Shown: positions 1 through 20,797 of the stretch, piece by piece | Layout: each line of letters begins with the position of its first letter | How positions within the stretch are numbered: position 1 is the first letter of the stretch | Origin: Candidatus Moraniibacteriota bacterium | GTDB lineage: Bacteria; Patescibacteriota; Minisyncoccia; Moranbacterales; UBA2206 | Assembly: GCA_049303795.1 (NCBI GenBank) | Contig: JBAQNM010000007.1 | Location: 13,665-77,664 of the forward strand | Direction of reading: 5' to 3' | Length of the DNA: 64,000 nt | The notes under the pieces: model-generated | What the model was told of the DNA's origin: nothing | Database searches by the model: none | What the model saw: only the letters and a program-made list of their open reading frames with translations | Position numbers and translations under genes: made by a program

Positions 1-617
1 AGCGCCATGGAGTATATATTTTAATTTCTTCCGTAATAATAATTATCACAATCTATTTGACCTATTCTTATGCTGCTTGGCTTTCTTTATTATTAGCATT
101 TGGTATAGTTTTGGACTTAGAAAAAAAACTATTTAAAAAAATTAGCCTAATACTTCTGCTTATGATAGGCTTATTTTTTCTTCAACAAGGAAAAAGTAAA
201 TTTTTAGATTTGGTGAGCTTAGATTCTAGGTCATCTTTTTCTTCAAGAATAATGATCTGGCAATCAGCAGAAAAAATATTAGCCGATAATTGGTTTTGGG
301 GTATTGGCGCGGGTAATTTTCAGACAAAATATCTTGAATATCAAAAATATTTTTCACCATATCTAGAGTGGGCAGTGCCACATCCGCATAATTTATTTCT
401 GACCTGGTGGCTTTATTCTGGAATTATTGGGTTGATTGGATTTATTTTGCTAATTTTTGTTTGGTTTAGGGATATCCTAGTAGGCCAAAAAAAATCCAGC
501 CTAGGACTTATGGGGCTGGGAATAATGTTTTATTTTCTATTGCATGGTCTTTTCGACACAACCTATTTTAAAAACGATTTAGCGATTATTTTTTGGTTGT
601 TATTCAGCTTAATCTAG
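1..617 (+). CDS. O-antigen ligase family (Wzy_C/WaaL-like) membrane protein, C-terminal part. The frame is open to the window edge, so the gene is 5'-truncated by the window.
   Basis: Multi-TM ORF with a GIGAGNF motif and an HPHN motif typical of the Wzy_C domain. No in-frame stop between position 1 and the first Met at 57. Paralogous to the C-terminus of ORF 43778..45565. Confidence 0.55.
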   Translation, partial: RHGVYILISSVIIIITIYLTYSYAAWLSLLLAFGIVLDLEKKLFKKISLILLLMIGLFFLQQGKSKFLDLVSLDSRSSFSSRIMIWQSAEKILADNWFWGIGAGNFQTKYLEYQKYFSPYLEWAVPHPHNLFLTWWLYSGIIGLIGFILLIFVWFRDILVGQKKSSLGLMGLGIMFYFLLHGLFDTTYFKNDLAIIFWLLFSLI

Positions 618-1753
618 AGATTGGCGCGATAAAGCTTTCCGTCTGTGCGATTGATGAAAAATAAAAGACTTTCATCTGTATTAAGAAACAATTTTGTAGC
701 ATCATAACTGCCATTTATCTTGTCTATTTCGAGACTGCGAGATTTTTCTCCTGTTGCTGTGTTGATTTTCCAAAAAGTATCAATCGTATTGATTTTACCT
801 TGATCATAGTCATTAGGTATGACAGCATTATCCGGAATTCCTCCTGGCAGAGCGCAGATGATATTTTTGTTGTCACTGAGCCAAACGCATTTAGAAACGA
901 GTGTTGGAACGTTCAGGCGTTTCAATTCTCCTCCAATGGAGTTTATAATAGAAAGTTGTATTTTTGATCCACCACTAGTTTCCACGCTACTAACTAAAGC
1001 TTTTGTTCCATTATTATTCCAAAGATAATCGGCGCCAAAAACTCCTTTAAACAATTCTCTTTCACCTCCACCAACGATCGAAACTGATTTAAGGCTGGTC
1101 TCTGAAAAAGAATCGGCTTTATTCCAAAAAGAAACTAAGCTACTTTGAGGGATTTGAGTAATAGAAATATCACGAACATTAATATCGGCTAGTTTTATCC
1201 ATTCAGTGCCATCCGGGTTAGAAATAGAGAGAGTCCTTTGTTTTGTTGTAGTATCATAGTATTTATAGAAAATACGATTGCTGGTATTCTGCCAGGCAAC
1301 TTCATCAACATTTTGTTTAAGAGGCGTTTCCTGTTGATTGGGATCATAATAATAGAAGTTTGTACTTTCTCCACTAACAGTTTTTGTGATCACCTTGGTT
1401 TTGTCCGGTGACCAGGTAGCAGAAACAATACCCGCGGCTGTTTTATTAGGAAGGGACTTTTTTCCGTTGCCATTAAAATCAATTTGATAGGCACGTCCGG
1501 TAGTTTTGGAATAATAATCAATCATGCTAGGATCTTTACTGATTGTTGCTGCAACAACAGCTTCATCTGTGATGGCAATAATTGATTCTGGGTTTGTTTT
1601 TTTTGTATCTTTCGGCGTGTTATTTTCTACGACTATATGTGATTTATCTCCAGAGCTTGGAGTTTCAAATGCAAATTTATAGATGCCAAAAAAAAGCAAA
1701 GAAATGCAAAACAAAGTCAAGGATATGTAAAAAAATATTTTATTTTTAGGCAT
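614..1753 (-). CDS. Membrane-anchored hypothetical protein with a beta-propeller-like (TolB/PD40-like) repeat region
   Basis: 379-aa ORF with an N-terminal TM helix and repeated W/Y-rich strands (WSPDKTKV, LWNNNGTKALV). Its end overlaps the upstream ORF by 4 nt. Confidence 0.45.
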   Translation of the reverse strand: MPKNKIFFYISLTLFCISLLFFGIYKFAFETPSSGDKSHIVVENNTPKDTKKTNPESIIAITDEAVVAATISKDPSMIDYYSKTTGRAYQIDFNGNGKKSLPNKTAAGIVSATWSPDKTKVITKTVSGESTNFYYYDPNQQETPLKQNVDEVAWQNTSNRIFYKYYDTTTKQRTLSISNPDGTEWIKLADINVRDISITQIPQSSLVSFWNKADSFSETSLKSVSIVGGGERELFKGVFGADYLWNNNGTKALVSSVETSGGSKIQLSIINSIGGELKRLNVPTLVSKCVWLSDNKNIICALPGGIPDNAVIPNDYDQGKINTIDTFWKINTATGEKSRSLEIDKINGSYDATKLFLNTDESLLFFINRTDGKLYRANL

Positions 1754-1774: not shown

Positions 1775-2698
1775 TTATAAGCCACTATCACACATACAAC
1801 CAGAAGGAGCGATGCTAATATGAACATGAGTTCCTTCAACAAGACTTTTCGCACCACAAGTAGTGGCAATTGCAGTTATTTCAGAGGATGTTCCTTCGTC
1901 ACCAATATAGTCTGATTTTGCAATATCCGCTGCATAAGATTTTCCATGACATTTTCCTCCATAGTGACAAGAGCCTGGTCTATGAAAACAACAGTTAGTT
2001 TGAGCTTGAGCTGTACATTGTTTCCAAGCTGGATGATCAGCATAGCAATTAACGCCACCATTGCCATCGGAAATAGAAGTTATTGTAATAAATGCTCTAT
2101 CTTCTCCTTGTGGAATATGATTGTACATGCAAGATAGTAGGGTTTGTAGTTCTGATGAGGCGTCTGCATATTGAGCAGCTATTCCAGCTTGGAACACCAT
2201 ATCACTAGGTGCGACAGGATTTGCTGGTAAGCCGCCTTGTCCAGCTTCTGTTATGGATGTTGAAGAGCTAACGGTGGAGCATTCAAAGGTATTCCAGGCG
2301 CTTTTTCCGATGCCCATATCTGCTTTAACAGATAGCATCGTTAATGCAGTATAAACAAGAAGCCATGCCCCAAGCATTAAAGCAAAGCCAATAACAACAT
2401 TTGTGGTAAGAGCTTTTGCTTTAGTCATCATCGTTGATGTTCCAGCTGAAACGACATACATAACTCCAGCAATAACAATTCCAAGAATCGAAACAACAAT
2501 AAGAATACCCATGCCAAAATCAATGATGTTTTTAATAAGCACAAATAAATGACAAAGAGTGCAGGGATCTGATGCTCCAAGTCCACAAGGAACAAGTCCA
2601 GCGGCGAGTAATTTTTTAGTTGGAAAAAATAAAGAAAAAATTAAAAGAATTGTGAATAATAATTTATTAAAACTAATAATTTTTGCAATTTTTTTCAT
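1775..2698 (-). CDS. T4SS pilin-like (TrbC/VirB2-like, Cys-motif) membrane protein with a C-terminal Cys-rich putative LAS-type (peptidase M15-like) zinc hydrolase domain
   Basis: Signal/TM segment followed by LVPCG...DPCTLCHLF and then two hydrophobic helices carrying a SAG..KAK motif, the pattern of Patescibacteria/Gram-positive T4SS pilins. The C-terminal half contains H-x6-D (HGKSYAAD) and EGTHVH (ExxH / HxH), compatible with a LAS zinc peptidase. The domain call is inference. Confidence 0.5.
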   Translation of the reverse strand: MKKIAKIISFNKLLFTILLIFSLFFPTKKLLAAGLVPCGLGASDPCTLCHLFVLIKNIIDFGMGILIVVSILGIVIAGVMYVVSAGTSTMMTKAKALTTNVVIGFALMLGAWLLVYTALTMLSVKADMGIGKSAWNTFECSTVSSSTSITEAGQGGLPANPVAPSDMVFQAGIAAQYADASSELQTLLSCMYNHIPQGEDRAFITITSISDGNGGVNCYADHPAWKQCTAQAQTNCCFHRPGSCHYGGKCHGKSYAADIAKSDYIGDEGTSSEITAIATTCGAKSLVEGTHVHISIAPSGCMCDSGL

Positions 2699-2702
2699 AT
2701 AT

Positions 2703-3659
2703 TTATTCTAGGTTTGTGCCAGCACATTTATTATAAAAATTTAAAACGACTGATGTTCTGGCGGGAACAACACAATATCCCCCACAATCCTTTGGGCAGT
2801 CCCATTTTTCATATGGATGTCCGTAACTATTAGTCATTCCAGTGCAGCTACTACTGACTGTTAGGGCGCCTTTTCCACCATTATAGCCAGCATAGCGATC
2901 TCTAATTACCTGAGCGGGAGGGTTCGATCTTCCTGCATTTACAACGTAGTTATTTGCAAGATAATATGCTCCACATTCTATGGCTTTTTGTGGATTTTGT
3001 TCTAATTCGTCACAAGTTGGACTTCCTGGGCAACCACTTGCTCTTGTTTGCATTGCGCCACAATCTTGACCACCATTAGTGCGTGAAGGTTGTTGCTTGC
3101 AACTTGATTCAATAGCTGCAGCGGCTTCTATCAAGCATTTATCAAGGCCAGATGTTCCAGCCACAGTGGTGAAGATTGTTTGCCACTCCGCACTTGAACA
3201 ATCGCTGGGTAATGGCGAATCTATTTTTGGATAGGTTCCATCATAACTTCTAGCAGCATCGGAGATCAGTTTGTCAACGCTCTTAATATCAAGCAGGGCT
3301 GGATTTATGGTGTAGATTAAGATATAGGAAATCATAGCAAGAATCACTCCAGCAATGGCATCCGTAATAATTCCCTTGGCTTTTCCGGCCGTGCTGGTGT
3401 TGCCGGCACTTCCAATATACATAAAAGCACCAATAGAAATCATTAAGACAGCTGATATTCCAATTGTCCAAATGCCGAAGTTATAAATAGCTGCCACGTA
3501 TTGCTGATAATTTTCAGGCCTGCCAAATCCAGGAATTTCTTCCATGGGAGTGTATACCAATTTACTTAGATCTGCGGCAAAAGAAAGCGAGGGTAGAAAA
3601 ATCGAAAAAAACAAAAAGAAAAAAAGTGTTTTTTTGAGGTTTAATTTAAAATTCATCAT
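2703..3659 (-). CDS. Pilin-like membrane protein fused to a family-1 lytic transglycosylase (SLT/VirB1-like) domain
   Basis: Signal peptide and two hydrophobic helices with a SAGN..AGKAKG..INP motif resembling the neighbouring pilin-like ORF. The C-terminal region carries all four SLT motifs in order: AIESS (ES), GAMQ (GLMQ), AIECGAYYLANNY (xxGxxYL) and RYAGYNGG (AYNAG). Confidence 0.6.
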   Translation of the reverse strand: MMNFKLNLKKTLFFFLFFSIFLPSLSFAADLSKLVYTPMEEIPGFGRPENYQQYVAAIYNFGIWTIGISAVLMISIGAFMYIGSAGNTSTAGKAKGIITDAIAGVILAMISYILIYTINPALLDIKSVDKLISDAARSYDGTYPKIDSPLPSDCSSAEWQTIFTTVAGTSGLDKCLIEAAAAIESSCKQQPSRTNGGQDCGAMQTRASGCPGSPTCDELEQNPQKAIECGAYYLANNYVVNAGRSNPPAQVIRDRYAGYNGGKGALTVSSSCTGMTNSYGHPYEKWDCPKDCGGYCVVPARTSVVLNFYNKCAGTNLE

Positions 3660-6606
3660 AATGATAAGTTTTTGTTTTAGGTATTAAAAATGTAAGTATT
3701 TTTAATAGAAATAAAATTACAAAACCGGAAAGGACAATGCGAAAAAGAAAGACTATATAACTAGGAATCCCTGCTGAAATAGTGGCCAATATTTTTTGTG
3801 AGTTAGTTTTAGCCTTAACAAGAGCGCTATCTGCCATAGTGATTTTGATAGCATGAGTGAGTCTTTTTTCATAAAAATCATCATAGCCGACCTTCCAATA
3901 TTTATTAAGCACTTTGTTTACTTTTATATCTTGAGAATAAAGAGCTGAGAAATCGATTTGATAGGCTTCACCATAATCTTTTGCTGGTAGGGTTAATGCT
4001 CCGTCTGTAATCCCATAGCCATATTCTACAACATTTTCTTCTGTGATCACGTCGCCATTTATTACCCATTTGTATTCTTTTCGATTATCTGGATTAGTTA
4101 AGTCAATTCCTGATCCCTTAGGGGTTAGGACTATTTCAAAGCCTGTTAGTGCGTTGAAGTCTATTTTACTTCGAACTTCAACAGGATTTCCGGTGAGAGG
4201 GTCTGTGCTACTTTCTGTTAATTTTGCACGACAAGTATATTGAGCAGGATCAGCCGGATTATTAAATTCTTTCGGGATAATTTCAACAGAAGGGGTGACG
4301 ATCTTAAATGTTCTCGTTAAGTTTATTTTTTCCCCAGTATCTTTTTTTACAGCAATAAGGTTTACTGTGAATTCATCACCAATTGATTTTAAAACTGGAA
4401 AATAATTAATATTTGTCTGGGTTTGGTCGGCATTTATGCAATCTTTAAAATCAGTAGCATTGGGACAGAATAAATTCGCCCCATCAAGAGACCATTTGAA
4501 ATTATCATAATCGCTAGGACCGTCAATTTTTACTCCTAAGAGTGTATTTTTTGATACATTACAAACAGCATCTGGAGTGATTATCCCCCCAATATTTTGA
4601 ACACACAACTCTTTTGTCGAAGAACTGTCGTCGATATCTACTGAAAGGGGCGTGTCGGTTATTACTGTTGGATAAACCATAATTCTTTTTTCTGTAGAAT
4701 AGATTGGTATAATGACATCTGTGCGACCCTCTCTTTCATCTCCTCCAGTGAGGCTGTCTTTAACAACCAGTTTTACTTTTAAATATTTTGGGATGCTAGG
4801 CATTGAAGCGGAGGTTTCAAAGTTCAGTTTAAAACTAAAATTATCAACACCCAATCCAACTGTCTGAGTTGCTTCAGGAAGCTCATCTTTTGTTAGGAGT
4901 GTCCAAGTGTCTGAATCTGAAGTGGAAGCATAGGAAACCTGCCATTCATAATTTAGATATTCCAAATTTTGTGCATTATTTATGAATGAACTAAGAGAAA
5001 GCTCACTGCCATTTTTTAGACCACTGGAGTCATTAGTTGGATTTTTAGGGCTGTATGCAATAGTAACCTCCATTTTTTCTTTTGATCCGCCGCCTTCTGC
5101 TGGCGTTAGCAGGTTTTCATAAAGACACTTATTTAGATCTTTAACTTTAAGATTGGTTCGAGAAATATCTTGATTTGTGAGGTCAAAGGCGTTACAAGTG
5201 TAGGTTGTGTCAGCGGTAGTATCGCTTGAGTCATTTTCATATTCATAATCAAGAATAGTAACATTTTCATCATCAGGACAGGATGATTCTCGAAGTATTG
5301 TATACGCTTGAAGTGGTGACCTAGGTGTTGCTGGTAATCCAGTCGAATCATCCGTGCAAGTAACAGTCGTTTCAGTTATTACATGCGTTCTGACATCTCC
5401 TGAGTCGTTGATTTGTGTTCCAGCTATAATAAAAGGGTAAGTTGTTTTTTTCACAACTATTGTGCAGGTTAGATCTGGTATTGGAGGAATAGCAAGCGGG
5501 TCGCCTATTTGAGATTGCGTCGTGGTTGTTGTCGTGACTGTCGGAGAATAGCCTCCATCATTTTCTCCAAAACCATCTGCATCTAGTAATTCATCGCAGG
5601 TATTTTTTGAAAAAGCCCACATAGTTTTATAGCTAGAGTCTTTTTCCTGTGTTGGCTCAATGGAAACACCCTCAATTGCAACACCGATCTTATCACCGGC
5701 ACTATAGTTGAATTTAAAGGTAGCTCTTCCAAGCCCAGCAACAGTGGCTTCATCAAACTGACCAGCTTGAGAGGTATCCCGGGAATTAGGATTGGTACGC
5801 CAAAAACCTTCTTCCCTTTTGCCAAAATTAAAATCCTTTGCAGCTGTTAATTCGCTAATGCCTTTTGAGCCATTTATTATTATGTCGTTATCAACTGCAT
5901 TTGGAAAAAGATGTCCGCACTCACAGTTTTCACTGTCATTGCAATCCGCTAGCTCATATTCATCTCCAGATTCTACATCGTGGATAAAGCAGTGAGCGTT
6001 TTTTCCTTTTTGATCTTCACCTCCACTAGATGCATCATAACTATCTTGATCGTCAATGTAGCTAGGAGGATCATAGACGTTAGTATCTGCCCTACCGTTT
6101 CCATCGGGATCCCAATTAAAGTCATCACTAGCAATAATGCGCATAGCTTTAATTTTGTAATCTTCAATATCAACCTCTTCATCATGATTAAGGTCGCATT
6201 TTTCGAAATCGCCAGGCAAAAACTTATCCTTATAATCTTCTCCATCAATCATTTCATCATAACAACGAGCATTTTTTAGATACCAAGTGAAATATAGATT
6301 GTTGGTAGTGTTGAGGAAAAAATTCGGCATTGCTGTTACGTTTAACTCATCCCCTGGTGCGGGATTTGTTGGAGTAAAAACAAGCATAACTTGTGGTTGA
6401 TTTTTCTTTTGCCTGGATACGTTGGCTGTTTTAATGGTGTTTTTTAATTCAGCCTTATCAACTCCAAGATCTTTCATAACCTTGTTTGTCATGCTGACTG
6501 GATTGATGCTAAGACCACCAAAGGCATAAAGAAAATTTACATTTAACGAAAAAGCTATTAGGACAATAAAAACAGAAAGAAATATTTTTTTTAATTTAGT
6601 TTTCAT
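3646..6606 (-). CDS. Giant (986 aa) secreted surface protein with a C-terminal membrane anchor. Candidate adhesin of the T4SS-like module.
   Basis: N-terminal signal peptide and a long Thr/Asp/Asn-rich extracellular region with TTTTTTQ and DxDxDG-like stretches. A hydrophobic anchor lies near the C-terminus (IVFLFRIVLSGFVILFLLKILTF). Overlaps the downstream ORF start by 14 nt. Confidence 0.55.
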   Translation of the reverse strand: MKTKLKKIFLSVFIVLIAFSLNVNFLYAFGGLSINPVSMTNKVMKDLGVDKAELKNTIKTANVSRQKKNQPQVMLVFTPTNPAPGDELNVTAMPNFFLNTTNNLYFTWYLKNARCYDEMIDGEDYKDKFLPGDFEKCDLNHDEEVDIEDYKIKAMRIIASDDFNWDPDGNGRADTNVYDPPSYIDDQDSYDASSGGEDQKGKNAHCFIHDVESGDEYELADCNDSENCECGHLFPNAVDNDIIINGSKGISELTAAKDFNFGKREEGFWRTNPNSRDTSQAGQFDEATVAGLGRATFKFNYSAGDKIGVAIEGVSIEPTQEKDSSYKTMWAFSKNTCDELLDADGFGENDGGYSPTVTTTTTTQSQIGDPLAIPPIPDLTCTIVVKKTTYPFIIAGTQINDSGDVRTHVITETTVTCTDDSTGLPATPRSPLQAYTILRESSCPDDENVTILDYEYENDSSDTTADTTYTCNAFDLTNQDISRTNLKVKDLNKCLYENLLTPAEGGGSKEKMEVTIAYSPKNPTNDSSGLKNGSELSLSSFINNAQNLEYLNYEWQVSYASTSDSDTWTLLTKDELPEATQTVGLGVDNFSFKLNFETSASMPSIPKYLKVKLVVKDSLTGGDEREGRTDVIIPIYSTEKRIMVYPTVITDTPLSVDIDDSSSTKELCVQNIGGIITPDAVCNVSKNTLLGVKIDGPSDYDNFKWSLDGANLFCPNATDFKDCINADQTQTNINYFPVLKSIGDEFTVNLIAVKKDTGEKINLTRTFKIVTPSVEIIPKEFNNPADPAQYTCRAKLTESSTDPLTGNPVEVRSKIDFNALTGFEIVLTPKGSGIDLTNPDNRKEYKWVINGDVITEENVVEYGYGITDGALTLPAKDYGEAYQIDFSALYSQDIKVNKVLNKYWKVGYDDFYEKRLTHAIKITMADSALVKAKTNSQKILATISAGIPSYIVFLFRIVLSGFVILFLLKILTFLIPKTKTYHYDEF

Positions 6607-7274
6607 TTTGATAAATAAATAATATATGCATCTAGAATTATTATAGCAAAAATATTCATAAAATACGAATATAAAAAAGATTTTGTTTTATAAGCCAAAA
6701 TTCCGCCCGTAATTGAAAATAAAATCATCGGTAATATTTCCCAAGAAAAGGATTTAGTCACAAGTATTATAAAAAAATAGCTTCCAGCTTGAATAATAAT
6801 AGACCAATAGTGAAATTTTTTTTGAAAAAAAGAAATTATAACACCACGAAAGAAAAAATCATGAATGAAAAATATAAAATTAACAATAATTAGTTCATAG
6901 ATTAGATAGCTCCAAAAACTGGAAAGGACATTAGGAGGGAGTTTGTAGCCTGATTGAAATCCCGAATAATTTAGGAGTAAATAAAAAAGGAGTAATGAAA
7001 ATAAAAGAAGTCCACTTCCCCAACGAAGAGCAATTCCTCGATTTTTGAGATTAAATCCAAAATCAGCCATCTTTTCTCCAAGTATTATTTTGATGTAAAT
7101 AAGGGGGAAAATAACCAGAAAAAAAATATTTTTAGTAAGTAGTTGGGCAGAGTTTTCTGCTGGAAAAGTAGTATTAAGAAAAAGACAAATGAAAAGTACA
7201 AGAGCATTTAATAGTAATGCCTGGTTATTAATAAATGAGTTTAAGTTGTATCGATTTTTTTTAAATAAGCGCAT
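6603..7274 (-). CDS. Polytopic membrane protein, possibly a degenerate CPBP (CAAX protease/Abi)-like family member
   Basis: 223-aa ORF with at least six predicted TM helices. FIHDFFFRG resembles the EExxFRG motif and ITGGILAYKTKS the C-terminal CPBP motif. The catalytic residues are not all recognisable. Confidence 0.35.
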   Translation of the reverse strand: MRLFKKNRYNLNSFINNQALLLNALVLFICLFLNTTFPAENSAQLLTKNIFFLVIFPLIYIKIILGEKMADFGFNLKNRGIALRWGSGLLLFSLLLFYLLLNYSGFQSGYKLPPNVLSSFWSYLIYELIIVNFIFFIHDFFFRGVIISFFQKKFHYWSIIIQAGSYFFIILVTKSFSWEILPMILFSITGGILAYKTKSFLYSYFMNIFAIIILDAYIIYLSK

Positions 7275-7313: not shown

Positions 7314-7961
7314 TTATTTTTGGGCTTTTTTTGCTTCAGCTTCATCTTTTCTCTCCATGAGAATAAGTGTGAATGCTGTGCAAGCAGTAGCTGTTTCGAT
7401 TGGAGCGAAATTTACTCCAAAAAAGAACATTTCGACACCTGTTCCTGTGATGAGTGAAAACCATTTCATGATTTTTAACTTCATTTTTTTCTTGGATCCA
7501 AATGAGGAATGAGAGCCGCAAAAAAGCATGGCAAAAAAAATTGTAATTGAAGTCATAAGCGTGATGAGTGTTCCGATGAGGGGTAGTGAGCCGACTCCAA
7601 TAAAATCCAGATAATCTTTAGCCATTGCTACCAGTATGGCAAGAAAAAAAAAGACATCAGAAAATTTAATCAAACGAATAAGTGACAATGTGCTGGTTGG
7701 TTTTATATCTTCGGTGGGATTTGAATTTTGCGCGCCAGAACGCCTCTTGAGTCCTTCTGTTCTATTAATAGAATCTTGAAAATCACGACGCCATTTTTCC
7801 GATTGAGCTTTATTTCCATCGCTTCCTGAAGACATCCCAGGAGGCATATTTGGTCGATTGTCGATAGCCTTACCACCTTCCTTTATTCTTTGTGTATTAT
7901 TTATGGAATCTTGAAAAGCGCTATTTTGTTGGTCGTTGTATTTATTAAATGATTCTCCCAT
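7314..7961 (-). CDS. Hypothetical membrane protein with a disordered N-terminal region and two or three C-terminal TM helices
   Basis: 215-aa ORF located directly downstream of VirB4 in the same operon orientation. No recognisable catalytic motif. Confidence 0.4.
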   Translation of the reverse strand: MGESFNKYNDQQNSAFQDSINNTQRIKEGGKAIDNRPNMPPGMSSGSDGNKAQSEKWRRDFQDSINRTEGLKRRSGAQNSNPTEDIKPTSTLSLIRLIKFSDVFFFLAILVAMAKDYLDFIGVGSLPLIGTLITLMTSITIFFAMLFCGSHSSFGSKKKMKLKIMKWFSLITGTGVEMFFFGVNFAPIETATACTAFTLILMERKDEAEAKKAQK

Positions 7962-7973
7962 AGGTAGCTATTA

Positions 7974-9818
7974 TTAAAAATTCGCTTCTTCCTCTTCAAG
8001 ATCTTTTTTGGCTTGTTCTATTTCTAGAAGTTGTGATGGATCTGTTGTGATGATTTGATCTTCGGAATAGGAAGCAACAACCTTAATGGCAACATGTTTG
8101 GCTCCGGCAAAGAAAATACCTTCCCCGATGTTGCTTTCTAGAAGCAGAAATTTTTCCTGATCAGTGAGATAAAATGTGTCGCAAATGATATCAATTGCGG
8201 CTGGTGATTGCTTGAGAAGAAGTTGGAGAGAAGAGTTTGTCACAATCGCTTTGCCATAGCGGGAAGATAAAAAGTCATTAACATCCTGAGTAATTGTGGT
8301 AAGTCCGGTGAAATATTTTCTGCAACGCTTAGCAATTCCAAATAAAAATGAAGCAGCGTCCTCTGATCTCATCATAACCCAAGCTTCATCAACTAAAACT
8401 AGGCGTTTCTTGATGTCAGTACGCATTTCATTCCAAATGAATTGTAGAATTGTATACATAGCAATCGGTCGTAACTCTTCTTCCATATCACGAATATTAA
8501 AAACAACCAATTGATTATCAATATTGATAGTTGTCGTGTTATTTAAAAAGCCACCAAAAATACCATCAGTATATTTTTCTAGTCGAATAGCGAGCATTTC
8601 TCCTCCGTCCATACTGCGGAGAACTTGATGCAGATCGGCCATAGTAGGAAAAGATTTTTTTGAGAGCATATTGAAGTCTGTTTCGATGGTAATATCTCTG
8701 ATGCTGTAAGTTTCATGAATAGCACGATCCAAAATAGAGTCTTCCTCAGGAGTGATTGAGCCAAGCATGATATGTAAAAGTCCGAGAAGATTAGCAATAT
8801 TATTACGTAAAACATCTTCTGGATCATCATCTTTACCAACTTTTGGTAGGTCGAAGGGGTTGAGATGATTAGTTGAATTGAGGGAGATTTTAATAAAAGA
8901 ACCATCAACAGTGTCACAAAGATGGCGATATTCGTTTTCTGGATCAATAATAATGACATTTGTACCAATCATCATAGAACGCAAAACTTCCAATTTAATC
9001 GTGTAACTTTTTCCAGCTCCAGATTTAGCGAAAACAACCATATTGGCATTTTCCATTTGAAAACGATCAAAAATAATCAAACTGTTGTTGTGGCGATTAA
9101 TACCATAAAGAATTCCGGCATTTGATGAAAGTGTGGATGAGACAAAAGGAAAAGTTGTAGAGAGAGGCGAACTATTCATATTAGTTCCTATGTCTAATTC
9201 GTCATTTGCCAGTGGTAATGAAGAGTTGAATCCCTGCTCTGCTTTAAAAATAGCTGGCTTAACATAAACTAACTGAGCTTCCATGATGGACTCGATGCTT
9301 TTGATGATCTCTGTTACGGATTTTTCGCTATCACCATAGGCAGTTATATAGAGAGCAAAACGAAAGAATTTTTCTGTGCCTTGTTGGAGTTTGTCACGTA
9401 ATTCGTCGATATCTCTTTGGGCGGTTTCCAATGCAGGATCACGGATAATGCCTTTTTCCTGTTCGATCATGAGTTGTGATTCTACTCGTGTGGCACTAGT
9501 GCGCAAGTTTTTTAGAATATCGCTGGTATCAACAGGATGAATGAACATTGAAATATCGATTGGCATATCAATATTTATAATGGGAGAAAACCAATTACTG
9601 TGAAGAAATCTTGGATAAGCAATGACAGAAATTGTTTGAGCAATTGTTTCTCCAATGCGAATAGATTTTGGCATGATTTGAATTGCAGCCGGAGCAATCA
9701 AGTCATTGAGCTTGGCTAATCCCTCTTGGTAGTATTTTTCTGACTCCAAAACCTCGTCTGTTGGCTGGACATTTTTTTGAGCATTAGCTGTGTCTTTTTT
9801 TGAAAAAAAGTTTAACAT
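7974..9818 (-). CDS. virB4: VirB4/TrbE/PrgJ-family conjugative ATPase, C-terminal ATPase portion
   Basis: Walker A VFAKSGAGKSYT and Walker B LVLVDEAW are present. The size and motif order are typical of VirB4-family ATPases. Confidence 0.85.
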   Translation of the reverse strand: MLNFFSKKDTANAQKNVQPTDEVLESEKYYQEGLAKLNDLIAPAAIQIMPKSIRIGETIAQTISVIAYPRFLHSNWFSPIINIDMPIDISMFIHPVDTSDILKNLRTSATRVESQLMIEQEKGIIRDPALETAQRDIDELRDKLQQGTEKFFRFALYITAYGDSEKSVTEIIKSIESIMEAQLVYVKPAIFKAEQGFNSSLPLANDELDIGTNMNSSPLSTTFPFVSSTLSSNAGILYGINRHNNSLIIFDRFQMENANMVVFAKSGAGKSYTIKLEVLRSMMIGTNVIIIDPENEYRHLCDTVDGSFIKISLNSTNHLNPFDLPKVGKDDDPEDVLRNNIANLLGLLHIMLGSITPEEDSILDRAIHETYSIRDITIETDFNMLSKKSFPTMADLHQVLRSMDGGEMLAIRLEKYTDGIFGGFLNNTTTINIDNQLVVFNIRDMEEELRPIAMYTILQFIWNEMRTDIKKRLVLVDEAWVMMRSEDAASFLFGIAKRCRKYFTGLTTITQDVNDFLSSRYGKAIVTNSSLQLLLKQSPAAIDIICDTFYLTDQEKFLLLESNIGEGIFFAGAKHVAIKVVASYSEDQIITTDPSQLLEIEQAKKDLEEEEANF

Positions 9819-10504
9819 TATTTTAGTTCCATTTTGGTCGTATCAACATAACCCATCGTATCGAAAATGGTCGGGTTGTACGAGTTAAATAGTAATTCAA
9901 TTAATTCGTTAGTCTTAAGAGGTGCAATTTTTAATCCGATACCTGAAAGTCCGGCGATAATATGATCAACTCTTTGATAAAGTGGAGCTTTGTATGTTTC
10001 AAATGTTTCTCTTTTTTCCAGAATATTTTCTTTAGGATTAATCATGTTCTTGATGTTGCTAAAAAACCCTTTTTCAGTGCTTTCAACGGGAGAAAACGGC
10101 ACAACCATATAGAAAGTTTTTTCCATGATATCAGAGAGTGAAACAAGTTGCTTAATAAAATCTTTGTATTCTGAAATTTGCAGTCGCATTAGCTCTGTTT
10201 TTTGAGTTTTCTCTTTTTCGGTTATATATTCCATGTAGGTATCAATATTCAATCGGCGTGAATTTATGAGAATTTGCAGTGGAAAGTCAACAGAGTTGAG
10301 AAAATTTTGATATTGCATGATAATTGCTTCTTGTTCATCAGAGGCCTTGAGATCGAAGTTGATAGAAGACACCTCTAAAACAGCTCGCAGTGAGCCATTT
10401 TTAAGAACAATAACATCTTCTTTAACTTCTTCTACCACGAGATATTTTTGAGTAGGAGAGGCGACTGGTTGCTTGGCTAATTTTGAAGAAAATAGAGTTT
10501 CCAT
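9818..10504 (-). CDS. VirB4 N-terminal domain encoded as a separate ORF (split virB4)
   Basis: 228-aa ORF whose TAA stop overlaps the ATG of the ATPase ORF (TAATG on the coding strand). NGSLRAVLEVSSINFDLKASDEQEAI...FLNSVDFPLQI resembles the N-terminal domain of Gram-positive VirB4 homologs. Confidence 0.5.
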   Translation of the reverse strand: METLFSSKLAKQPVASPTQKYLVVEEVKEDVIVLKNGSLRAVLEVSSINFDLKASDEQEAIIMQYQNFLNSVDFPLQILINSRRLNIDTYMEYITEKEKTQKTELMRLQISEYKDFIKQLVSLSDIMEKTFYMVVPFSPVESTEKGFFSNIKNMINPKENILEKRETFETYKAPLYQRVDHIIAGLSGIGLKIAPLKTNELIELLFNSYNPTIFDTMGYVDTTKMELK

Positions 10505-10531: not shown

Positions 10532-10936
10532 TTATCTTTTTTGTGTATCTAATATGCGTGATAGATCTTTTGCTCTTTCAGAATCAAATACTTTTTTTGC
10601 AGGACTTTTAGTCTGTATTTTTTGAGTAGCAACTGTTGGGTGGTATTCTTTTCTTTCAGCTACTCTGTGCCATACATATAATTTTGGTCGTTTAATGAAA
10701 AGAATCGATGAGCTGACAAGTTTTATTAGGGGTTGGTTGTAGGGTCGATAGAAAGCTAGGGCTCCAAAAATAACAGCGATTATAGCGGCAGAAAGAAAAA
10801 AAGTGGCCTTATCAAGTGTGCTATAAGCAATGAGAAGTATGACGCCACCAATTGCCAGCCAGCCAAGCTGTTTAGCGGTTAGTGGGCCAACGAGCTTATC
10901 TTCAATATCAATAAATTGAGGAATGTTAAAAATCAT
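10532..10936 (-). CDS. PrgI/VirB3-like small membrane protein
   Basis: 134 aa. IPQFIDIEDKLVGPLTAKQLGWLAIGGVILLIAY is followed by two TM helices. It sits immediately upstream of VirB4, as PrgI/VirB3 does in Gram-positive T4SS. Confidence 0.55.
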   Translation of the reverse strand: MIFNIPQFIDIEDKLVGPLTAKQLGWLAIGGVILLIAYSTLDKATFFLSAAIIAVIFGALAFYRPYNQPLIKLVSSSILFIKRPKLYVWHRVAERKEYHPTVATQKIQTKSPAKKVFDSERAKDLSRILDTQKR

Positions 10937-17394: not shown

Positions 17395-19047
17395 ATGATT
17401 ATAGAAAAAATAATAGGAAAAATTGAAGATAAAATAACGATACTTCTAGAGGGTAAAATTAGCATCATAGAAGGACTTTTGGCCTTTTCTCTGATTATTT
17501 CTTTGCGCGTATTTATTGAATTTTTTTTAGCCTCAAAAGCTTTGTCAGCCGAGTTGATTATTATCGAGTATTTACACAATTTTCTTTTTTTTGCATTAGC
17601 GACAATTTTACTTTGGTTTAATCTTAGTTTTTTTCTTAAAATTAATCCAAAAAAAATTGCTCGATTTTTTTTATGGATTTCATGGGGAATTCTTTTTTCT
17701 CCACTTCTGGATATGATTAAAACCGGTGGTGAAGTATATTGGAGTTTTTATGTTATTGGTGGTCCAAAGTTTCTTTTTTCTCAATACATATCATTTTTCG
17801 CCGGTCTTCCATCCGGGATTGTTTATTTTGGAACTAAAATAGTTTTTCTTTCCAGTATTATCCTTTCCGGATTGGTAGTGCTAATAAAAACAAAAAATAT
17901 AGTTAAGTCAATTTTTAGCGCATTACTAGCTTATACAGTTTTATTTATAATTGGTTCTGCGCCATCGGTGGCTGCAATATTATATTATTTTTTTGTAAAA
18001 GGAAAGGATTTTTTGATTGATATGCAATCAGTGCATGTTATTCAGGTTTTAGCTGTGCCCGTGCCGATTTTTGGAGTTAAGTTGGGAAATTTAGCTTATG
18101 CATTACCCTATAATCTGGAATTTATTTTATATCCATTATTTCTAGGTCTGTTGTTTGTATTATTTTTAATTATTGATAAGAAAAAAGTCTTATTTCTATT
18201 GAAAAATTCTCGGCTTCCTCAGCTAATTTATCATAGTGGGTTGTTTTTTATTGGCCTAGGTCTTGGCGCTTGGTTTTATCGAGAAAATTTTAGTATGAAC
18301 GTCTTTGCTATATTTGCTGCTTTGGATTTATTGATATGCATTTGGTTGGCATGGCTGGCCTCAGTTGTGGTTAATGATATTTATGATTTTTCACTTGACT
18401 TAGTTTCTAATCCAGAAAGACCTTTACAATGTCAAGAAATCAGCAAAAAGGAATATTGCGAAATTGGCTGGCTCTTGTTTTATTTTTCATTATTTGGTGG
18501 TTTATTAGTGAGTTTTAAATTTTTTGGATTGTTATTGGTTTATCAATTAATAGCTTGGGCATATTCTGCTTCTCCATATAGATTAAAGCGTTTTCCAATA
18601 GTAGCTTCTTTTGTAAGTGCCATGGCTTCACTCGTAGTGTTTTTCATGGGTTTTGTTCTAATTTCTGGTGATCAAAATATTCAAGGTTTGCCTTGGAGAG
18701 TTATTTTGCTTTTAATTATTTCCTATACGCTTTCTTTGCCGATAAAAGATTTTAAGGATATCGCTGGAGATGAAAAAGATGGAATTAGAACGATTCCTGT
18801 AATTTTTGGAGAAGAAAAGGGAAGAATAGTTGTTGGTTCTGGCATTTTTATTTCTTTTGTGTTGAGCGTGTTTCTCCTTAACGAAAGAACTCTTTTTTTC
18901 TGGGCGCTTCTTTTTGGTGGACTTTCCTATTTTGTTGTTTCCAATAAAAAAATCCACCCAAGAAAAATCTTTTGGTGGCTTTTACCGATTATTATCGCTT
19001 ACGGGTTGATTTTAGTTAAAACTATATTTGGTAGGGTTATTTTTTAA
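17395..19047 (+). CDS. UbiA-family prenyltransferase with an additional N-terminal membrane domain
   Basis: 550 aa. The C-terminal half carries the two Asp-rich UbiA motifs VNDIYDFSLD and KDFKDIAGDEKDG. There are about 8 extra TM helices N-terminally. Confidence 0.65.
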   Translation: MIIEKIIGKIEDKITILLEGKISIIEGLLAFSLIISLRVFIEFFLASKALSAELIIIEYLHNFLFFALATILLWFNLSFFLKINPKKIARFFLWISWGILFSPLLDMIKTGGEVYWSFYVIGGPKFLFSQYISFFAGLPSGIVYFGTKIVFLSSIILSGLVVLIKTKNIVKSIFSALLAYTVLFIIGSAPSVAAILYYFFVKGKDFLIDMQSVHVIQVLAVPVPIFGVKLGNLAYALPYNLEFILYPLFLGLLFVLFLIIDKKKVLFLLKNSRLPQLIYHSGLFFIGLGLGAWFYRENFSMNVFAIFAALDLLICIWLAWLASVVVNDIYDFSLDLVSNPERPLQCQEISKKEYCEIGWLLFYFSLFGGLLVSFKFFGLLLVYQLIAWAYSASPYRLKRFPIVASFVSAMASLVVFFMGFVLISGDQNIQGLPWRVILLLIISYTLSLPIKDFKDIAGDEKDGIRTIPVIFGEEKGRIVVGSGIFISFVLSVFLLNERTLFFWALLFGGLSYFVVSNKKIHPRKIFWWLLPIIIAYGLILVKTIFGRVIF

Positions 19048-19841
19048 AAAAGTTCAGCTATTTTTTTCCATTCAGCCAGACTTAATTCTTGCGCTCTTAT
19101 ATTAGCGCTTAATCCTAGGCTTGTGATTTTTGTGGTTGCTTCCATTTTTGTGATTTTCAGGCTGGCACTTAGGTTATTGGAAAGTGTTTTGCGTTTAGCG
19201 GAAAAACCTGCCTTGACTACACGAAAAAATCTTTTACTATTTTCCGATTTTAATCCAGTGTTTTTATTAAGGCTTATTTTTATTATGGCGCTATCCACTT
19301 CTGGAATGGGAAAGAAGGCTTTTCTGGGGACAATAAAAAGCAATTCTGGAGTGGCGTAGTATTGGACAGAAAGGGCGAGAATGCTTAGTTGCCCCGGCTT
19401 TGCGATTATTCTTTCAGCGACCTCTTTTTGCACCATTAAAAGCATCTCAGTTGGAGGATAGGCTGTTTCTAGAAATAAACGAATAATTTTTGAGGTGATG
19501 TAATAAGGAATGTTAGCGATTAGTTTATATTTCTGGCTAGGAATGTTTTTCTGTATTATTTCTGGTAAGTTTATTGTTAAGATATCAGCTTGAATAATCT
19601 CAATCTTTTCTTTTGCGGAAAATCTTTTTTTCAAATTGCCAATCAATGCTCGATCAATTTCAATGGCTAAAACTTGTTTAGCTGATTTTGCCATTTCTGC
19701 GGTTAGAACTCCTTCTCCGGGGCCTATTTCCAAAATAAAGTCATCAGCATTGATATTTGCAACCGAAATAATTTTTTTGAGAATTTCTTCATCACGCAGG
19801 AAATTTTGCCCGAGAGATTTTTTTGGTTTAATTTTGTCCAT
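19044..19841 (-). CDS. rsmA: 16S rRNA (adenine1518/1519-N6)-dimethyltransferase RsmA/KsgA
   Basis: LGQNFLRDEEILKKI and the SAM-binding ILEIGPGEGVLT motif. The length of 265 aa is typical. Confidence 0.9.
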   Translation of the reverse strand: MDKIKPKKSLGQNFLRDEEILKKIISVANINADDFILEIGPGEGVLTAEMAKSAKQVLAIEIDRALIGNLKKRFSAKEKIEIIQADILTINLPEIIQKNIPSQKYKLIANIPYYITSKIIRLFLETAYPPTEMLLMVQKEVAERIIAKPGQLSILALSVQYYATPELLFIVPRKAFFPIPEVDSAIIKISLNKNTGLKSENSKRFFRVVKAGFSAKRKTLSNNLSASLKITKMEATTKITSLGLSANIRAQELSLAEWKKIAELF

Positions 19842-19849
19842 AAAATTTG

Positions 19850-20797
19850 TTAGTTTAAAACTTCTTCTACTCTCACTCCAATTACTCCAGCGCCTAGGGA
19901 AGCGATTTTCTGGAAAGCCACCTTGTCAAGATCAATTATGCGTCCCTTTCCTTGTGGTCCATAATCATTGATTTGTACTATGATTGATTTTCCATTGGCA
20001 GTATTTGTCACTTTGGCATAGTTACCCTTAGGAATTGTTGTGCTAGCGGCAAATAATCCACCTTTATAAGCATACCACGTTCCTTGACCCTTAGCGGCTG
20101 ATCCTAGTTTCATGTAAGTTCCTTGCGTAATAATTTCTGTAGTAGGTTCTTTTGTAATATTTTTTTCCAAAATAACACGCGAGGTCTCTTTGCCGTCTTT
20201 GTATGTTATTTTGTATTTTACTTCAATTATCCCATTTTCACCAGCTTGTTCGGTTTTCTTTTCTCGCCAGCCTAATTTTGAAGCTGTTTTCGTGGTTGTT
20301 TTGAAGGGGATTTTTTCAGGAATAATTTTTTCTTCAATATTTATTCTTGTGACAATAATTTCCATGTCATTTTCTAGGAGTCCATATTTATCTGGTATGG
20401 TTTTATCTAGCCGGCCAAGAGTTATATTGTTTTCTTGAAGTACTAGGTCGAGATTATTTGTCAGGGTATGATTTTTAATATTTTTTCCATCAACGGCTAT
20501 ATTGATTTTTATAGCCCTTTTTATTTCAACGGTGGAATTGGTTAAGAGTGAGGAATTTCTGTTAGGAGTTATCTGATCATGCTCTGCTAAGGTTATTTTT
20601 TGTTCAGTTAAAAAGTTATCCACAGTTTTTCCTGTCGTTTTTAGCTTGAATTCAAGCCCATTATCACGCAGAAGGAGCGTTTTTGGTTGATTTTCAAAAT
20701 TAAGAATTGGAGAGGGAGAATAAAAAGACAAGCCCAGTTTTACGAGGAAGAATAGGAGTAATACAAAAATTGTAAACTTAAATAATTTCTTGAACAT
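19850..20797 (-). CDS. YabE-like protein (DUF348/G5-like region plus a C-terminal RlpA-like/3D double-psi beta-barrel domain)
   Basis: N-terminal TM segment. The C-terminal TIPKGNYAKVTNTANGKSIIVQINDYGPQGKGRIIDLDKVAFQKI matches the RlpA/3D DPBB signature. It is adjacent to ksgA, as yabE is in Firmicutes. Confidence 0.7.
   Translation of the reverse strand: MFKKLFKFTIFVLLLFFLVKLGLSFYSPSPILNFENQPKTLLLRDNGLEFKLKTTGKTVDNFLTEQKITLAEHDQITPNRNSSLLTNSTVEIKRAIKINIAVDGKNIKNHTLTNNLDLVLQENNITLGRLDKTIPDKYGLLENDMEIIVTRINIEEKIIPEKIPFKTTTKTASKLGWREKKTEQAGENGIIEVKYKITYKDGKETSRVILEKNITKEPTTEIITQGTYMKLGSAAKGQGTWYAYKGGLFAASTTIPKGNYAKVTNTANGKSIIVQINDYGPQGKGRIIDLDKVAFQKIASLGAGVIGVRVEEVLN

Follow-up and report, generated by a model that had tools for sequence, protein, structure and literature searches.

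Adjacent genes in a patescibacterial type IV secretion locus join a pilin-like module to predicted murein hydrolase domains

The type IV secretion systems (T4SSs) of Patescibacteria resemble the conjugation systems of monoderm bacteria and, unusually, possess VirB2-like pilins that are often encoded in arrays, as described in three studies (PMC10633639, PMC12102498, PMC12857230). These pilins are the feature that separates patescibacterial T4SSs from other monoderm T4SSs (PMC10633639, PMC12857230). In Southlakia epibionticum, the T4SS is essential for epibiotic growth (PMC10633639), and the role of patescibacterial T4SSs has been termed "completely unknown" (PMC11665869). Here, we describe two adjacent minus-strand genes from a Candidatus Moraniibacteriota bacterium, ORF1 (1775..2698, 307 amino acids [aa]) and ORF2 (2703..3659, 318 aa), in a 64,000-nucleotide stretch of contig JBAQNM010000007.1 (the window). 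Both open reading frames (ORFs), which an earlier note on this DNA had delimited, were found at these positions. Each encodes an N-terminal module that we assign to the patescibacterial T4SS pilin family, followed by a C-terminal domain which, judging from conserved motifs, profile matches, and predicted fold, is a lytic transglycosylase in ORF2 and a zinc peptidase in ORF1.

Functionally, the pair would belong to a known class, the T4SS-associated murein hydrolases, and its architecture, which is real and widespread, draws on the patescibacterial T4SS pilins, likewise a known family. According to a 2025 survey, PrgK (pCF10), TraG (pIP501), and TcpG, which are multidomain hydrolases of conjugative T4SSs from Gram-positive bacteria, likewise belong to monoderm T4SS operons with a CD1110/PrgJ-type VirB4 and PrgI, and, as predicted for ORF1 and ORF2, they are membrane-anchored, have extracellular domains, and combine a glycan-cutting SLT or lysozyme-like activity with a peptide-cutting one (PMC12102498). 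However, each of PrgK, TraG, and TcpG is a single polypeptide in which one N-terminal membrane segment precedes both activities and the peptidase is of the CHAP, NlpC/P60, or LytM type. In the window, by contrast, the activities would be divided between two genes, both of which place a two-helix T4SS_pilin module ahead of the enzyme, and a Hedgehog/DD-peptidase fold is predicted for the peptidase. Similarly, VirB1 of Agrobacterium-type systems is a family-1 lytic transglycosylase with motifs like those of ORF2 and is encoded beside virB2 in the Ti-plasmid annotation, but it is a separate soluble periplasmic protein, while ORF2 would unite the transglycosylase and a VirB2-like module on one polypeptide.

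Within the same phylum, SEML1_0006 and SEML1_0007 of S. epibionticum are, by analogy, likely counterparts of the pair, with which they share the neighborhood (PrgI, a small protein, VirB4, and hydrolases) and the two enzyme classes. SEML1_0007 (1113 aa) lies directly downstream of virB4 and has a C-terminus assigned to Hedgehog/DD-peptidase in ECOD, and SEML1_0006 (643 aa), which follows it, combines a pair of lysozyme-like domains with a cysteine proteinase (Wang et al. 2023, PMC10633639 Table S2). Both genes are essential in transposon sequencing (PMC10633639). However, no pilin module is assigned to either protein, and the pilins (SEML1_0014-0019) are encoded as short proteins of their own (PMC10633639 Table S2). 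The presence of the same enzyme classes in S. epibionticum suggests that both classes are a conserved part of the apparatus and that the pilin fusion is what differs in the window. The VirB2-like pilins described from Patescibacteria share with ORF1 and ORF2 the module (signal peptide, hydrophobic hairpin, and PF18895) and the association with virB4, but according to the 2025 survey they measure about 90-190 aa, to which ORF1 and ORF2 add 170-190 residues predicted to form an enzyme (Quinonero-Coronel et al. 2025, PMC12102498). The survey places VirB1 and VirB2 homologues in two distinct classes (PMC12102498). Pilin-hydrolase fusions are common within Patescibacteria (see below), and no mention or description of them was found in the literature searched, including the passages of the survey that term searches returned (PMC12102498).

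AlphaFold2 models, for which alignments of 36 (ORF1) and 46 (ORF2) relatives served as input, together with hydropathy and conserved motifs, divide the two proteins as follows (pLDDT, predicted local distance difference test):

2600..2698, minus strand: predicted signal peptide of ORF1, residues 1-33 (KKLLAA before the cleavage site, GLVPCG after it), with a K-rich start, a modeled helix over residues 10-24, and matching hydropathy
2327..2599, minus strand: pilin-like module of ORF1, residues 34-124 (GLVPCG...CTLCH, helix 48-83, basic loop SAGTSTMMTKAKA, helix 88-124)
2204..2326, minus strand: flexible S/T/G/P-rich linker of ORF1, residues about 125-165 (pLDDT 42-68 over residues 121-160; length-variable in the alignment)
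1778..2203, minus strand: predicted Hedgehog/DD-peptidase (LAS) zinc-peptidase domain of ORF1, residues about 166-307 (proposed site H239, H245, D258, E288, H291, and H293)
3573..3659, minus strand: predicted signal peptide of ORF2, residues 1-29 (SLSFAA before the putative cleavage site, DLSK after it), from a modeled helix over residues 8-26 and hydropathy
3291..3572, minus strand: pilin-like module of ORF2, residues 30-123 (YTPMEEIPGF, helix 51-83, loop SAGNTSTAGKAKG, helix 88-118, INP)
2706..3290, minus strand: predicted family-1 lytic transglycosylase domain of ORF2 with an N-terminal helical extension, residues 124-318 (catalytic E184)

We consider it probable that ORF1 and ORF2 are co-transcribed, Sec-exported T4SS proteins, each combining a VirB2-like module with a murein hydrolase, and that they open the cell wall for the apparatus. 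Both proteins would be exported by the Sec pathway and lose their signal peptides, after which the hairpin would hold them in the membrane, its loop facing the cytoplasm and the enzyme lying outside. ORF2 would then cut glycan strands, using E184, and ORF1 the peptide stem or cross-link, with zinc on H245, D258, and H293 and catalysis by E288 and H239. The pilin module would tether the enzymes where the T4SS handles pilin subunits, so that lysis would be confined to that site, and the two activities together could open the wall for the secretion apparatus, a role that is played elsewhere by VirB1, PrgK, and TraG of pIP501.

The pilin-like core that the earlier note had proposed, marked by an LVPCG/Cys motif or by a SAG..KAK..INP hairpin, was recovered in both ORFs by reading the motifs in the sequence (GLVPCG at residues 34-39, C46/C49, SAG at 84-86, and KAK at 93-95 in ORF1; SAGN at 84-87, KAK at 93-95, and INP at 118-120 in ORF2), by the modeled hairpins and, at the family level, by PF18895. 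In both AlphaFold2 models, the signal-peptide helix is followed by a long two-helix hairpin with the short loop S-A-G-x6-K-A-K, which in ORF1 reaches a pLDDT of 83-93. Both hairpin helices are strongly hydrophobic, and the loop contains 2 lysines and no aspartate or glutamate; this charge pattern fits a loop in the cytoplasm and a C-terminus outside. The probable cleavage site of ORF1 was placed by the A-x-A-like LAA and by the conservation, which begins at G34. The modules of the two proteins are homologous, as their family hidden Markov models (HMMs) cross-match with E-values of 1.5e-18 and 1e-9, and they differ in the mature N-terminal segment, which reads G-L-V-P-C-G...C-T-L-C-H in the ORF1 family and Y-T-P-M-E-E-I-P-G-F in the ORF2 family.

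Among the relatives, PF18895 (T4SS_pilin) matches 34 of the 36 for ORF1 (E <= 1) and 31 of the 46 for ORF2 (E <= 0.01), as well as 19 of 20 family members in another set (E <= 0.01), with a best E-value of about 1e-9, and PF04956 (TrbC) matches 5 of the 36 ORF1 relatives (best E 0.0017). Homology to canonical VirB2 could not be demonstrated: hhalign of the module profile against 6 annotated VirB2/TrbC pilins, taken from plasmid records, returned the correct helix-loop-helix register at a nonsignificant E-value of 0.061. When the module profile was searched against PDB sequences, the only matches were spurious ones to repeats of designed "Pizza" proteins, and no solved pilin was recovered. ORF1 and ORF2 possess the predicted signal peptide, the two hydrophobic helices, and the short basic loop of a pilin in a virB3/virB4 or array setting; they are not small, hairpin-only proteins, since their 307 and 318 aa include a predicted enzymatic head of 170-190 residues. 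At the family level, the assignment of both N-termini to the patescibacterial T4SS_pilin family is solid.

The architecture recurs beyond the window. Three independent contigs (L001-L003) share its gene order, which comprises genes for a VirB6-like protein, PrgI, a 228-aa "TraC-like" protein, VirB4, and a small protein, followed by an approximately 225-aa gene, a 955-979-aa gene, the pilin::lysozyme-like and pilin::Hedgehog-like fusions, and an approximately 380-aa gene. In a six-frame search for further pilin-like ORFs with three module HMMs, only the two fusions per locus were found in the window and in L001-L003. The head on the conserved module varies: in L001 (8677-9534), SLT_3 (PF18896) replaces SLT behind a module that is 63% identical to that of ORF2, and the pair is split by an inserted 146-aa gene that is not pilin-like. 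Across the relatives, SLT, SLT_3, NlpC/P60, Ig-like, and Hedgehog-like heads were found on the same module. Furthermore, when the ORF1 head was searched against 1.84 billion representative proteins, the Hedgehog-like domain was recovered in 242 representative clusters at E <= 1e-3, and a pilin-like N-terminus is present in 128 of the best 150 of these; a few large proteins also terminate in the domain. The fusion of cell-wall hydrolases to pilin-like scaffolds, which the earlier note had called unusual, is therefore unusual relative to PrgK and VirB1 systems, but frequent within Patescibacteria. The SLT version was already visible, as PF18895 plus PF01464 is a precomputed Pfam architecture, and some relatives carry the NCBI names "pilin" or "transglycosylase SLT domain-containing protein".

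On two contigs from other patescibacterial lineages, arrays of 4-5 short PF18895/PF04956 pilins each begin with a fusion gene:

L010, 3742-7372: pilin array headed by a pilin::NlpC/P60 fusion, directly after an SBP_bac_1 (solute-binding-protein) gene
L011, 2380-6158: pilin array headed by a pilin::SLT fusion, directly after an SBP_bac_1 (solute-binding-protein) gene

No virB4 was found near these arrays on the contig stretch covered (about 4-10 kb on either side). The L011 array terminates with a 334-aa long pilin. Of the evidence gathered here, these array-heading fusions speak most strongly for joint action of the fused proteins with ordinary pilins.

These arrays also bear on a different fate of the two proteins, namely an enzyme-bearing pilus. 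Here, the VirB4 machine would pull the subunits out of the membrane for polymerization, alone or with short pilins encoded elsewhere, and the interchangeable heads (SLT, SLT_3, NlpC/P60, or Hedgehog/DD-peptidase) would digest the host wall at contact from the filament or its tip, opening a route for nutrient or DNA uptake or for effector delivery. We regard this as unlikely, although several observations are in its favor. The same module occurs in patescibacterial pilin arrays that are headed by fused versions, the heads exchange on it, the linker of about 40 residues in ORF1 is flexible, and the heads are rich in cysteines, as expected of stable extracellular domains. In VirB2 and TraA pili, each subunit has its N- and C-terminus exposed on the filament exterior. 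Moreover, epibiotic growth requires patescibacterial T4SSs and pilins, whose role is described as unknown (PMC10633639; PMC11665869). On the other hand, no observed patescibacterial T4SS pilus was found in the literature searched, a domain of about 17 kDa on each subunit is sterically demanding, the module HMMs detect no short major pilin gene in the window, and no immunity gene is evident beside the pair in the window or in L001-L003. Furthermore, the present evidence does not distinguish between the own wall and the host wall as the substrate.

Returning to the proposal that both enzymes open the wall for the apparatus, the assignment of the ORF2 head is supported by all four family-1 lytic transglycosylase motifs that the earlier note had listed, E184-S185, G201-A-M-Q204, G230-A-Y-Y-L234, and A257-G-Y-N-G-G262, the last being AYNxG with one residue changed. 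E184, S185, Q204, N260, and G262 are invariant across the 46 relatives; at the GYNGG positions, conservation reaches at least 90%. A search of the ORF2 family profile against the PDB yielded MltC and MltE at E-values of about 1e-8, with E184-S185 aligned to their catalytic ES, and Pfam SLT (PF01464) matches 45 of the 46 relatives at E <= 0.01 (best 3e-17). The fold predicted for the head is lysozyme-like and alpha-helical. From its sequence, we conclude that the C-terminus of ORF2 is in all probability a family-1 lytic transglycosylase (GH23). The C-terminal parts contain 11 (ORF1) and 12 (ORF2) cysteines, which bears out the cysteine-rich character ascribed to them beforehand, and the motifs of both heads lie inside compact domains (pLDDT about 85-97) and not outside any such domain. 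The cysteines conserved among relatives include C190, C228, C237, C244, and C281 of ORF1 and C187, C200, C216, C272, and C288 of ORF2.

For the ORF1 head, the earlier note had suggested an M15/LAS zinc peptidase on the basis of H-x6-D and E-x-x-H/HxH, and all of these motifs are literally present (H251-x6-D258, E288-x-x-H291, and H291-V-H293). The fold and the second motif stood up to comparison with relatives, whereas the first did not: H251 shows 0% conservation over 152 homologous domains, and the conserved histidine is H245, which sits in S-C-H-Y-G-G. Over the same domains, conservation amounts to 97% for H239, 97% for H245, 99% for D258, 88% for E288, 94% for H291, and 95% for H293, and S243, Y246, and G247 of the S-x-H-Y-x-G signature are conserved across the family as well. 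A domain-only profile built from 30 diverse members was searched against the PDB, and its 23 best matches were all Hedgehog N-domains (E 0.003-0.06); the best matches of the full-length ORF1 profile were also Hedgehog N-terminal domains. In the alignment, C-x-H-x-x-x-S-C-H-Y-G-G...A-x-D and E-G-x-H-x-H-x-S of ORF1 stand opposite G-H-H-x-x-x-S-L-H-Y-E-G-R-A-x-D and E-S-x-x-H-x-H-x-S-V-K of the Hedgehog proteins, so that H239, H245, D258, E288, H291, and H293 align with catalytic and zinc residues of Shh. H291-V-H293 pairs with H-V-H or H-I-H of Dhh and Shh, E288 with the E of YYES, and H239 with the second H of GHH. Accordingly aligned, H245 is taken to be the equivalent of Shh H141, D258 of D148, H293 of H183, E288 of E177, and H239 of the upstream histidine, which we take to be a general acid. 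Pfam HH_signal matches 1 of the 36 relatives (E 6e-4).

This family is defined by the zinc motifs H-x6-D and H-x-H together with a catalytic glutamate (Shh E177) (PMC6027127). Compared with its members, such as the Streptomyces albus Zn D-Ala-D-Ala carboxypeptidase (M15A), bacterial Hedgehog-like proteins, and ShhN, the ORF1 head carries an insert of some 6 residues, including cysteine, between the histidine and the aspartate, as well as many extra cysteines, and has no detectable Pfam family of its own. The insert accounts for a ligand spacing of x12 instead of x6. Overall, the alignments and the predicted Hedgehog/DD-peptidase fold lead us to conclude that the C-terminus of ORF1 is, as far as can be read from sequence, a zinc peptidase fold of the LAS/M15 type.

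The head of ORF1 could instead be a noncatalytic Hedgehog-like binding module, a pseudo-enzyme that anchors the protein to murein or glycan and leaves ORF2 as the only enzyme. This would be in line with the noncanonical H-x12-D spacing, with the weak similarity to solved members (best E 0.003), and with the results of Foldseek, in which ORF1 gave nothing significant and no peptidase match against the PDB; among the curated models, neither Pfam nor NCBIfam has a match over the head. Catalysis has indeed been lost in some Hedgehog-family proteins, for example in Drosophila Hh, and with it the residues in question (PMC6027127). In ORF1 and its relatives, however, the six Shh-aligned residues are 88-99% conserved over 152 diverged domains, accompanied by S243, Y246, and G247. 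Such conservation of the proposed zinc and catalytic residues argues for an active enzyme and renders a binding module quite improbable.

Several results weigh against our reading of the pair as pilin-anchored T4SS hydrolases. ORF1 and ORF2 themselves score below the PF18895 cut-off (17.6 and 13.6 bits against 26.6), and ORF2 falls slightly under that of SLT (19.1 bits against 21.3). In ORF1, the histidine and aspartate ligands are separated by 12 residues (about x9 to x12 in relatives) and not by the canonical 6. Furthermore, the 64 kb contain no plain short pilin according to the module HMMs and so offer no evident pilus for the module to join.

The genomic setting, in turn, ties both proteins to the secretion apparatus. 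The following genes surround ORF1 and ORF2:

10532..10936, minus strand: PrgI/VirB3-like protein (PF12666, 38 bits against a cut-off of 27)
9818..10504, minus strand: small conserved operon protein of 228 aa (homologues at related loci are labeled PF26593 "TraC-like")
7974..9818, minus strand: VirB4-like T4SS ATPase of the CD1110/monoderm type (NF045971, 364.6 bits against a cut-off of 325; Pfam P-loop_TraG, E 5e-30)
7314..7961, minus strand: membrane protein of 215 aa with hydrophobic C-terminal segments, adjoining VirB4, with no family match
6603..7274, minus strand: CPBP/Rce1-like intramembrane protease (PF02517, 20.6 bits, slightly below the cut-off)
3646..6606, minus strand: exported protein of 986 aa with a C-terminal membrane helix and no Pfam family, co-operonic with ORF2
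614..1753, minus strand: protein of 379 aa with an N-terminal membrane helix and weak beta-propeller-like matches, directly after ORF1

The PrgI/VirB3 and VirB4 genes on the same strand confirm the T4SS locus that had been proposed for the pair. From PrgI through VirB4 to ORF1, the window contains a gap-free, single-strand run of genes, in which ORF1 and ORF2 are the final enzyme genes, separated by 4 nucleotides; the start of ORF2 overlaps the 3' end of the 986-aa ORF by 14 nucleotides, and the run closes with the 379-aa gene downstream of ORF1. This arrangement is relevant to the proposal that the two proteins are housekeeping autolysins, whose hairpin is an anchor that merely resembles a pilin and which remodel the own wall during growth and division independently of the T4SS. 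Bacteria commonly use membrane-anchored lytic transglycosylases and M15 peptidases as housekeeping enzymes. In addition, envelope-biogenesis genes (Wzy_C, glycosyltransferases, and YidC) lie in the region, near dnaA, and the hhalign result leaves homology to canonical VirB2 undemonstrated. However, the position behind VirB4, with overlapping or 4-nucleotide junctions, is conserved across contigs, the same module occurs elsewhere in arrays with TrbC/T4SS_pilin genes, and it is tied to the Hedgehog-like domain in 128 of the best 150 representatives. Moreover, the same enzyme classes lie within the essential T4SS cluster of S. epibionticum (PMC10633639). We therefore consider a housekeeping role very improbable, even more so than a noncatalytic ORF1 head. 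Finally, an artefact of chance motifs was rejected on the grounds of the conservation in deep alignments and the confidently folded domains.

The neighboring genes have counterparts in the related loci: the position of the 986-aa gene is filled by a 955-979-aa gene in L001-L003, that of the 379-aa gene by a gene of 381-382 aa, and that of the CPBP/Rce1-like gene by a 223-225-aa gene with no recorded Pfam match. Lying between VirB4 and the fusions, the CPBP/Rce1-like protease could, by analogy with TraF and TrbC, mature the pilin modules. With regard to a domain transfer from a neighbor, BLASTP of the 986-, 215-, and 379-aa proteins against the large proteins ending in a Hedgehog-like domain gave no matches. 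A consensus scan of the operon for promoters and terminators returned counts equal to the shuffled-sequence level and was uninformative. The nearest relatives of ORF1 and ORF2 belong to Candidatus Moranbacteria and other Patescibacteria, and the G+C content of the window is about 35%.

Continuing past the ORF1 homologue in L001-L003, one reaches dnaA after about 9 kb, with rnpA, yidC, and rpmH nearby as well. The T4SS operon of these contigs is thus located near the replication origin, in agreement with a published observation for Patescibacteria. In the window, the end beyond ORF1 cuts off at the Wzy_C gene (57-617). An RpfB-like protein with DUF348, G5, and DPBB lytic-transglycosylase-like domains (19850-20797, minus strand) and the adjoining KsgA/RsmA (19044-19841, minus strand) are encoded on the other side; the former, about 10 kb from VirB4, would be a third murein-active protein of the neighborhood.

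As a Rosetta-stone link, the fusion connects the pilin module with murein hydrolysis. In the reading offered here, a VirB1-type function has been built into pilin-family proteins in part of the phylum, and this fused function would escape any count that treats VirB1 and VirB2 homologues as different proteins. In addition, the Hedgehog/DD-peptidase superfamily gains a sizeable unannotated branch of 242 representative clusters, mostly fused to the pilin module. If the pilus itself were armed with these enzymes, the requirement for the T4SS and its pilins in the epibiotic lifestyle would have an explanation. More generally, the fusions hint at how the ultrasmall bacteria of the Patescibacteria/candidate phyla radiation pass a secretion apparatus through the cell wall.

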